A stretch of 64,000 nt of DNA, from assembly GCA_035508055.1 (NCBI GenBank), contig DATJNO010000096.1:2609-66608 (forward strand), in the 5' to 3' direction. The notes beneath the pieces were generated by a model that saw only the letters and a program-made list of their open reading frames with translations, did no database searches and was not told where the DNA came from. Below, one piece after another: positions 13,057 through 14,474 of this stretch. The DNA comes from Bryobacteraceae bacterium (GTDB taxonomy: Bacteria; Acidobacteriota; Terriglobia; Bryobacterales; Bryobacteraceae). The stretch's first letter is position 1, and each line of letters opens with the position of its first letter. The position numbers and the translations under genes are program-made.

Positions 13057-14474
13057 TGGCAAAACAGATTCTCTATAGCGATCAATCCCGTCAAGCGATT
13101 CTACGTGGCGTCAACCAACTCGCCGACACGGTGAAGGTGACTCTCGGCCCACGGGGCCGCTGTGTCGTTCTAGAAAAGAAATACGGCCGACCGACCGTCA
13201 CCAAAGACGGTGTGACAGTGGCCAAAGAGATCGAGTTGAAAGATCCGCTCGAAAACATGGGCGCCCAGATGGTGCGCGAAGTGGCGTCGAAGACCTCGGA
13301 CGTCGCCGGAGATATGATCGCCCAGGTGGGCAGCATTTCCGCCAATAGTGATTCCACCATCGGCGACGTGATCGCCGAGGCCATGAAGAAGGTAGGTAAG
13401 GACGGCGTGATCACTGTCGAGGAATCTAAGACGATGACCACTGAGCTTGCTACCGTGGATGGCATGCAGTTTGACCGCGGCTACCTCTCGCCCTACTTTG
13501 TGACGGATCCCGAACGCATGGAGTGCGTTCTTCAAGATCCTTACATTCTGATCCACGAAAGGAAGATCGGCGGCATGAAGGACGCGCTGCCTCTTCTCGA
13601 ACAAATCGCCCGCACGGGTAGGCCGTTGTTGATCATCTCCGAAGATGTGGAAGGGGAGGCCCTGGCCACATTGGTAGTCAACAAGCTGCGGGGCACGCTC
13701 AGCGTTTGCGCCGTGAAGGCCCCCGGCTTCGGCGACCGGCGCAAGGCGATGCTGGAAGACATCTCGATCCTGACAGGTGGCAAGGCCATCATGGAAGAGA
13801 CCGGCATCAAGCTGGAAGGCGTTCAGCTCGAGGATCTGGGCGGCGCCAAGCGCGTTACGGTGGACAAGGACAACACCACCATCATCGATGGGGCCGGTTC
13901 ACAGAAGAGCATCGAAGGCCGAATCAAGCAACTCCGGACTCAGGTGGAGGATACCACCGCGGATTACGATCGTGAGAAACTGCAGGAACGTCTGGCGAAG
14001 CTCGCCGGTGGCGTGGCCATTATCAAAGTAGGAGCGGCTACCGAGACCGAGATGAAAGAGAAAAAGGCCCGTGTTGAGGACGCTCTGCATGCCACTCGCG
14101 CGGCCGTGGAGGAAGGCATCGTGCCGGGGGGAGGCGTTGCGCTACTGCAAGCATCGATCGCGCTCAAGAAGCTAACGCTCCCGGGCGACGAACAGTTGGG
14201 TGTTAACATCGTGCTCCGCGCCTGCGAGGAACCGGTCCGGCAGATCGTGGTCAACTGCGGCACCGAGGGAGCCGTCGTCGCCGATAAGATCAAGAACCAG
14301 CCGGATCCTAATTTCGGCTTCAATGCTTCCACCGAGCAGTACGAGGACCTGGTGAAGGCCGGCGTAATCGATCCCACCATGGTAACTCGCACGGCTCTGC
14401 AGAACGCAGCTTCCATCGCCTCTCTTATGCTCACTACGGAGGCTATGATCTGCGGCGTCGTGGAGGAGGTTTAG
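13057..14474 (+). CDS. groEL: chaperonin GroEL variant with an in-frame internal deletion of the nucleotide-binding loop region and no GGM tail (472 aa)
   Basis: The true start is [35 protein letters not shown] at 13057; the track ORF 12885 is an upstream extension. The sequence reads ..[12 protein letters not shown]|[13 protein letters not shown].., whereas canonical GroEL has [12 protein letters not shown]..(~55 aa)..AIAQVGTISANSD. The rest is highly conserved. It ends ..[13 protein letters not shown]. Confidence 0.85.

Follow-up and report, generated by a model that had tools for sequence, protein, structure and literature searches.

A tail-less groEL paralogue of a Bryobacteraceae bacterium lacks the phosphate-binding loop and helices D and E owing to a replicated 54-codon deletion

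A groEL paralogue in the genome of a Bryobacteraceae bacterium has lost the segment that is indispensable for the activity of its family, namely the phosphate-binding loop together with helices D and E. We confirmed that the 162-bp deletion is genuine and in frame in the window, by which we mean the whole 64,000-nucleotide stretch of DNA that was analysed. The gene is a variant of a well-known protein family, and on present evidence it is most likely a young loss-of-function allele rather than a new kind of chaperone. It belongs to a tail-less clade of GroELs in Bryobacterales, and the widespread second groESL operon in which such genes lie, with its tail-less GroEL and lack of CIRCE, may matter more broadly than the deletion does.

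Extent and origin of the deletion

The open reading frame begins with an ATG at position 13056, one base earlier than the 13057 given by a previous sequence-only reading of the same DNA, and ends with a stop codon at 14472-14474, encoding 472 aa (Table 1). In the window, it is separated from the upstream groES by 31 nt. The product scored 196.7 bits against Pfam Cpn60_TCP1 (PF00118), for which the cut-off is 34.3, in two stretches broken at the junction. Matches to GroELs in the PDB were likewise split in two, with E-values down to 1e-206. The first PDB stretch covers query residues 2-86/88 and represents the GroEL N-terminus, while the second aligns query residues 85-467 with chain positions 140-522 of 1aon_A, whose chain numbering is offset by one residue from that of E. 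coli GroEL. Similarity to PF00118 and PDB structures, along with the neighbouring groES, places the product among the GroEL/Cpn60 group I chaperonins.

An identical protein is publicly available as HUA20160.1, named at NCBI 'MAG TPA: chaperonin GroEL [Bryobacteraceae bacterium]'. Searching 5.8 billion proteins returned this entry and two further 472-aa proteins that differ from it by 1 or 2 residues. The other close matches were full length, overwhelmingly 526-531 aa. Over aligned residues, the window GroEL is 97% identical to its nearest full-length relative, a 526-aa orthologue (P0004). The GroES encoded by the window is identical or near-identical to the GroES of the orthologous loci.

Table 1. 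Features of the groESL neighbourhood and other elements of the window.
Feature	Position	Strand	Basis or remark
Glycine-rich RRM RNA-binding protein	11165-11467		first gene of the conserved neighbourhood
52-aa hydrophobic ORF, then 89-aa ORF of unknown function	between RRM gene and groES		
Operon upstream region: 89-aa ORF and groES leader	12407..12712	+	conserved relative to orthologous loci
groES (Cpn10, 103 aa), intact co-chaperonin gene of the putative accessory operon	12713..13024	+	Pfam Cpn10, 116.8 bits
groEL paralogue (tail-less clade) with in-frame 54-codon deletion, 472 aa	13056..14474	+	ORF, Pfam, PDB, alignments
Deletion junction, CGTCGCCGGAGAT	13301..13313	+	hybrid of both copies of a 13-nt imperfect direct repeat
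63-aa Cys-rich ORF	14479-14670		follows groEL; 90% identical in L004
497-aa two-domain nitroreductase-family protein	14702-16195		
Fatty-acid desaturase	16221-17372	-	
416-bp insertion	3297-3712		flanks 3287-3296 and 3713-3722
tRNA-Ser (anticodon GGA)	19702-19791	-	ARAGORN, Rfam

Two alignments (A1 and A2) with full-length orthologues of 526-528 aa contained a single gap of exactly 54 residues (162 bp), located between positions 13313 and 13314. All of the full-length orthologues carry the 54 codons that are missing from the window groEL. Thus, the absence of about 55 residues that the sequence-only reading had placed at this junction was nearly exact in length, and the segment is truly absent rather than diverged. 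Mapping to 1aon_A identified the lost block as E. coli GroEL residues 88-142. Because Gly-Asp occurs on both sides of the gap, breakpoint placement is ambiguous by 2 residues. Within this block lie four residues of the phosphate-binding loop (Gly88-Thr91), the whole of helix D (Gly88-Ala109), and, after it, helix E and the linker that leads to the intermediate domain. In agreement, helices 89-107 and 112-133 of an AF2 model of full-length P0004 fall inside the deleted stretch.

Of the 120 closest proteins, 115 have the DGTTT motif of the phosphate-binding loop, as do all 118 canonical paralogues, but the window GroEL does not. The sequence-only reading had noted the loss of this motif, and indeed GTTT and the following 50 residues are gone, although the Asp equivalent to E. 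coli D87 stays in place. The remaining nucleotide-site motifs, which we take to belong to the ATP site as in E. coli GroEL, can all be read in the translation and do not vary across the alignment, as the sequence-only reading had maintained for the apical and other equatorial motifs. The apical domain, the intermediate domain, groES, and 140 nt upstream of groES are also intact.

ATP is bound by its beta and gamma phosphates at the N-terminus of GroEL helix D (Gly88-Ala109), via the Gly88 amide, and the helix reaches the ring-ring interface, where the K105/A109 contact carries inter-ring negative cooperativity (PMC5941174). From the residues lost, ATP binding, ATP hydrolysis, and inter-ring signalling of the normal GroEL kind should be impossible, and it is doubtful that the equatorial domain folds without two of its core helices. 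The earlier description of an ATPase-dead subunit therefore understated the damage, because helices D and E and the K105/A109 inter-ring contact are lost as well. AF2 monomer models gave a pLDDT of 52.4 for the deleted protein and 51.7 for the full-length P0004 control, with the equatorial domain below 50 in both. These values are uninformative about the effect of the deletion, as both models were built from the same 81-sequence alignment and the low pLDDT stems from the shallowness of that alignment rather than from the deletion.

The sequence around the breakpoints suggests how the segment was removed. At the left breakpoint, orthologous loci L1, L4, and L5 read CGTCGCCGGCGAT followed by GGC (GGCACC), and L2 has a T at repeat position 4. 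At the right breakpoint, the syntenic orthologous loci L1, L2, L4, and L5 read CGTCTCCGGAGAC followed by ATG (ATGATC). The two breakpoints form a 13-nt imperfect direct repeat, C-GTC-[G/T]-CCGG-[C/A]-GA-[T/C], in which 10 of 13 positions match and whose copies encode Gly-Asp dipeptides at orthologue positions 85-86 and 139-140. The window junction reads CGTCGCCGGAGAT followed by ATGATC, with the crossover inside the shared CCGG. This junction is the hybrid of both repeat copies expected from slipped-strand mispairing or illegitimate recombination, and one such event between the two 13-nt copies would have removed the 162 bp.

Replication of the junction across assemblies

The identical junction occurs in four assemblies, consisting of two ENA MAGs and two JGI contigs, which represent two pipelines and at least two strains. 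The window corresponds to the 72-kb contig k141_1904648 of ENA ERZ27256562, which bears MEGAHIT-style k141 naming. The same 472-aa gene is found on a second MAG contig, k141_1805401 of ERZ27256608 (L003), which is colinear with the window over 20.7 kb at 99.84% identity, with 33 mismatches and no gaps. A scan of JGI metagenomes with a degenerate junction pattern yielded one contig, Ga0335073_10113440, having 1 mismatch in 3483 nt relative to the window. It shares a K->E difference with P0002, a JGI protein encoded on a further, 14-kb contig. Every sampled allele of this species-level lineage, as represented by the four assemblies, has the deletion. The comparison with orthologues that the sequence-only reading had proposed therefore limits the deletion to near-identical strains of one species-level lineage, with no orthologue sharing it.

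The possibility of mis-assembly had been raised for this junction. If the deletion were an artefact of assembly or binning, whether a collapse or a chimeric join, the real genome would contain a full-length gene. Chimeras are known in metagenome assemblies of this family: P0005 (627 aa) and P0070 (628 aa) have internal duplications of about 100 residues, with two non-identical copies each, and are most likely assembly chimeras of strains or paralogues. They advise caution for length variants in the family and are the reason why replication of the junction matters. However, the same junction was obtained in all four assemblies by both pipelines (ENA k141 contigs and JGI), and two of the strains carrying it differ by 33 SNPs over 20.7 kb. 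Both the flanks and the synteny are colinear with orthologous loci. Moreover, the breakpoints share only 4-8 perfectly matching bases, which is far below any assembler k-mer, and hence de Bruijn collapse cannot yield the junction. We rejected assembly collapse on the basis of this replication, the short repeat, and the colinear flanks, and we give almost no credence to artefactual explanations in general.

A related concern is that the deletion allele coexists with a full-length allele in the population and that assemblers happened to pick the former. In favour of such a mixture, the deletion-bearing strains show signs of recombination, in that the window, L003, and L007 share derived states in incompatible combinations. 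Nevertheless, 4 of 4 sampled assemblies of the lineage carry the deletion, and no full-length protein with more than 97% identity was found among the 5.8 billion proteins. The nearest full-length gene has only about 93% DNA identity, which implies that it belongs to another species. We therefore consider polymorphism very unlikely. Differences between the window and L003 were clustered: the only four in groES, all of them synonymous, lie within 25 nt (12901-12925), and three changes in groEL lie within 28 nt (13367-13394). This clustering and the incompatible derived states suggest recombination or gene-conversion tracts in the population.

The tail-less paralogue and its operon

The window GroEL lacks the Gly-Met tail that is typical of GroEL C-termini, but its C-terminus has the same length and sequence as those of full-length orthologues such as P0004. 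All orthologues of 526-528 aa terminate in ...ICGVVEE, and the tail is absent in 114 of the 120 closest proteins. Since the absence extends across the clade, it is a property of the clade rather than a truncation or part of the lesion. The sequence-only reading was thus correct that the tail is missing, but mistaken in treating this as an anomaly, because it is shared by the whole clade of Bryobacterales accessory GroELs. Canonical GroELs of Bryobacterales are 542-547 aa long, with tails such as ..EIPEKK...GGGGMDF, and the tail-less and canonical types are about 82% identical to each other. Tail-less GroELs are relatively rich in Cys, with a median of 5 residues, and the window protein has 6.

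Two related genomes carry both types on a single contig. On a 5.9-Mb contig, the tail-less P0027 is located at 3.54 Mb and a canonical 543-aa GroEL, which was among the matches listed in a scan of GTDB genomes, at 0.19 Mb. Similarly, a 191.7-kb JGI contig encodes the tail-less P0089 and the canonical P0132, both of them accompanied by a separate groES. Where bacteria have several chaperonins, one with a Gly-Met tail is always retained (PMC11978752), and the presence of both paralogue types in one genome fits this rule. For the window's MAG, no canonical copy emerged from a homologue search that used the canonical GroEL of a Bryobacteraceae member as query, or from an accession look-up, which gave accessions for 5 of 10 proteins and none in the MAG's HUA series. 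Hence, its redundancy is projected from relatives only. By analogy with those relatives, tail-less groESL is probably a second operon here as well, beside a canonical operon with a tailed GroEL and a CIRCE-like element.

CIRCE scans indicated that regulation of the tail-less operon is distinct from that of the heat-shock HrcA/CIRCE operon. A search allowing up to 3 mismatches detected no CIRCE in the window, and none of the ten tail-less loci (the window and nine others) had a CIRCE-type element. In contrast, a CIRCE or CIRCE-like element was found upstream of groES in 7 of 10 canonical loci, including 4 of 5 Bryobacterales-type loci. In the canonical loci of Bryobacterales, this element is TTGTCACTC-N9-GTGTGCTAA, situated about 100 nt upstream of groES (L008 ~3533, L009 ~3555, L028 ~3494, L092 ~2550), and each half-site departs from the CIRCE consensus at no more than 2 positions. 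Near-consensus CIRCE is found in other canonical loci of Acidobacteriota. Scans for sigma-70, sigma-54, CIRCE, and terminator signals around the window's operon returned nothing above chance. The last 140 nt before groES (139 nt in L5) are 92% identical to L004 and L005, and the 89-aa ORF upstream of groES had no Pfam match.

The neighbourhood of the tail-less groESL, spanning 11165-17372 in the window, is conserved in loci L001-L005 (Table 1). Cold or membrane stress is the classic setting for RRM protein and desaturase genes, and we speculate that the tail-less groESL operon may be part of a stress island. The downstream nitroreductase is 493-497 aa in the window and L003, compared with split or truncated pieces in two long contigs with a full-length orthologue, L001 (8807-9776, 166 aa) and L002 (7038-8521, 375 and 135 aa), where the breaks are possibly due to assembly indel errors. 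Elsewhere in the window, a 416-bp insertion is absent from the 99.84%-identical L003. It has 13-nt terminal inverted repeats, TAGTGTCCTAAAG and CTTTAGGACACTA, a 10-bp direct repeat, CAGCGGTAGG, and a 109-aa ORF (3374-3703) with no Pfam match but an N-terminus that appears GIY-YIG-like by eye. From these features, the insertion looks like a small mobile element with its target-site duplication. The tRNA-Ser is the sole RNA gene that ARAGORN and Rfam detected in the window.

Age, selection, and meaning of the deletion

Two lines of evidence point to a recent deletion: the deletion alleles sit on a short branch (dS 0.046), and the other motifs, groES, and the upstream region are all intact. Of the suggestion that the deletion was either recent or tolerated, recency is therefore supported. 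The tail-less paralogue is normally under strong purifying selection, with omega about 0.05-0.1 and pairwise Nei-Gojobori values of 0.04-0.12. In a three-taxon estimate, omega on the deletion branch was 0.15 (bootstrap 0.05-0.42) versus 0.046 and 0.10 on the sister branches, and it exceeded the background in 88% of bootstraps, which is not significant. Strict parsimony assigned 2N:6S to the deletion branch versus 15N:58S (p = 0.67). Differences that arose after the deletion among deletion-bearing alleles numbered 3N:3S, and neighbouring genes had 6N:20S. One of the changes, in the L003 deletion allele, replaces G with R in the invariant PGGG motif. Such substitution counts are too few to separate a young dead gene from a constrained one, although they lean toward relaxation.

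Lesions in the DGTTT loop arose in 3 independent tail-less lineages among the 120 sequences versus 0 of 118 canonical sequences. The three are the window's lineage, P0091, whose deletion is a different one, and P0118, which reads DCTTT instead of DGTTT. That loop lesions are confined to tail-less paralogues hints at relaxed constraint, but is suggestive only. P0091 (L006 2003-3499, JGI contig Ga0604948_0109433) is a distant tail-less orthologue separated from the window by a dS of about 1.4. Its independent in-frame deletion of about 35 residues (SKTSD/GIDKAV) removes the DGTTT loop and helix D, has little microhomology at the junction, and is known from a single, unreplicated 3.5-kb contig.

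How should a GroEL without its ATP site be interpreted? We consider it probable that the gene is a recent loss-of-function allele of an accessory groEL paralogue, tolerated through a housekeeping GroEL. Without two core equatorial helices, the product would be unable to bind or hydrolyse ATP in the manner of GroEL. Most likely, the chaperonin does not function and the gene is a loss-of-function allele in which pseudogenisation is starting. Its loss would be tolerated since a canonical groESL with a tailed GroEL and a CIRCE-like element, as found in relatives, is expected elsewhere in the genome. The deletion allele would then have come to be carried by all sampled strains of one species-level lineage. 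Among the possibilities named by the sequence-only reading, we favour its 'pseudogene in the making'. Several observations nonetheless count against a null allele. No deletion allele has acquired a stop or frameshift, with neither present in the 472-codon ORFs of the window, L003, and L007. Omega is well below 1 (upper bound 0.42) and not significantly above background, and the ratio of 3N:3S fits neutrality and moderate constraint alike. The species lives free in soil and was sampled in several metagenomes, and the allele is apparently fixed in it. If the product were misfolded and costly, purging or silencing would be expected, yet groES, the ribosome-binding site, and the region upstream show no apparent damage. 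Finally, redundancy is drawn from relatives, as the canonical groEL of this MAG was not found.

Some of the same observations would be expected if the protein had retained a function under selection, for instance as an ATP-independent holdase, as a modulating or poison subunit in association with canonical GroEL, or through GroES titration. We regard retained function as unlikely. The frame is intact in four assemblies and lineage omega is below 1, but both are expected of a young deletion even if the gene is dead. Conservation extends to the apical and intermediate domains, groES, and the region upstream, and the allele is apparently fixed in the lineage, although one allele already has a G->R change in the invariant GGG motif. 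Excision is geometrically plausible from general knowledge of the GroEL fold, in which the segment starts and ends at neighbouring points at the top of the equatorial domain, and the AF2 model of P0004 depicts the lost segment as a self-contained helix pair. On the other hand, losing two core helices and the inter-ring contact goes far beyond point mutations such as D87K. The distant orthologue P0091 (L006) independently lost the same loop and helix D, but one species-level lineage and one single-contig case among 120 close relatives do not constitute a conserved clade. The intact frame is the one positive sign of an ATP-independent role, and the youth of the deletion explains it. The specific proposal that a GroEL devoid of the loop and helices D and E became fixed and was selected as an ATP-independent holdase or as a modulator of canonical GroEL/GroES is, in our judgement, quite improbable. 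If it were true, the deletion in P0091 would hint at a recurrent route to such proteins.

If the gene is a young null, it offers a clean and datable case of a redundant chaperonin paralogue decaying via microhomology-mediated deletion. It also serves as a warning that the NCBI annotation 'chaperonin GroEL' of HUA20160.1 hides a gene without an ATP site. A stable, active protein, by contrast, would make this the first natural GroEL demonstrated to do its work with neither helix D nor the phosphate loop, and it would inform which share of the equatorial domain folding and assembly require.

Apical-domain 'minichaperones' of GroEL (residues ~191-345/376) show that, without ATP, the intact apical domain alone suffices to bind unfolded proteins. 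They are the sole precedent that makes a holdase conceivable, but they are laboratory fragments, whereas the window protein is known from its sequence. Engineered GroEL mutants that are defective in ATPase activity (D87K and D52A/D398A) or inter-ring signalling (K105A) still fold and form tetradecamers. The elements hit in these engineered mutants are also the ones missing here, namely the K105-A109 contact and, at the N-terminal end of helix D, the phosphate-binding loop (PMC5941174). Unlike those point mutants, the window allele is natural and lacks the whole helix pair, which places its folding and assembly in doubt. We found no precedent in the literature for natural GroELs with equatorial deletions.

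Pseudogenisation of groEL/groES is reported for 'Candidatus Phytoplasma pruni' (PMC13245659). It resembles the present case in that a natural lineage is losing the function of a chaperonin gene. The window differs in that the affected gene is a redundant paralogue in a free-living soil bacterium with a large genome, and in having one in-frame lesion and no stops. The closest parallels to the operon as a whole are accessory Cpn60s such as Mycobacterium Cpn60.1 and Myxococcus GroEL2 (PMC11978752, PMC3578752), which occur in multi-chaperonin bacteria and have non-canonical C-termini. Like them, the window groESL appears to be a second operon, encoding a GroEL without a Gly-Met tail, lacking CIRCE, and with a tailed GroEL present in relatives. 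Unlike the window allele, however, Mycobacterium Cpn60.1 and Myxococcus GroEL2 have a complete equatorial domain and DGTTT loop.
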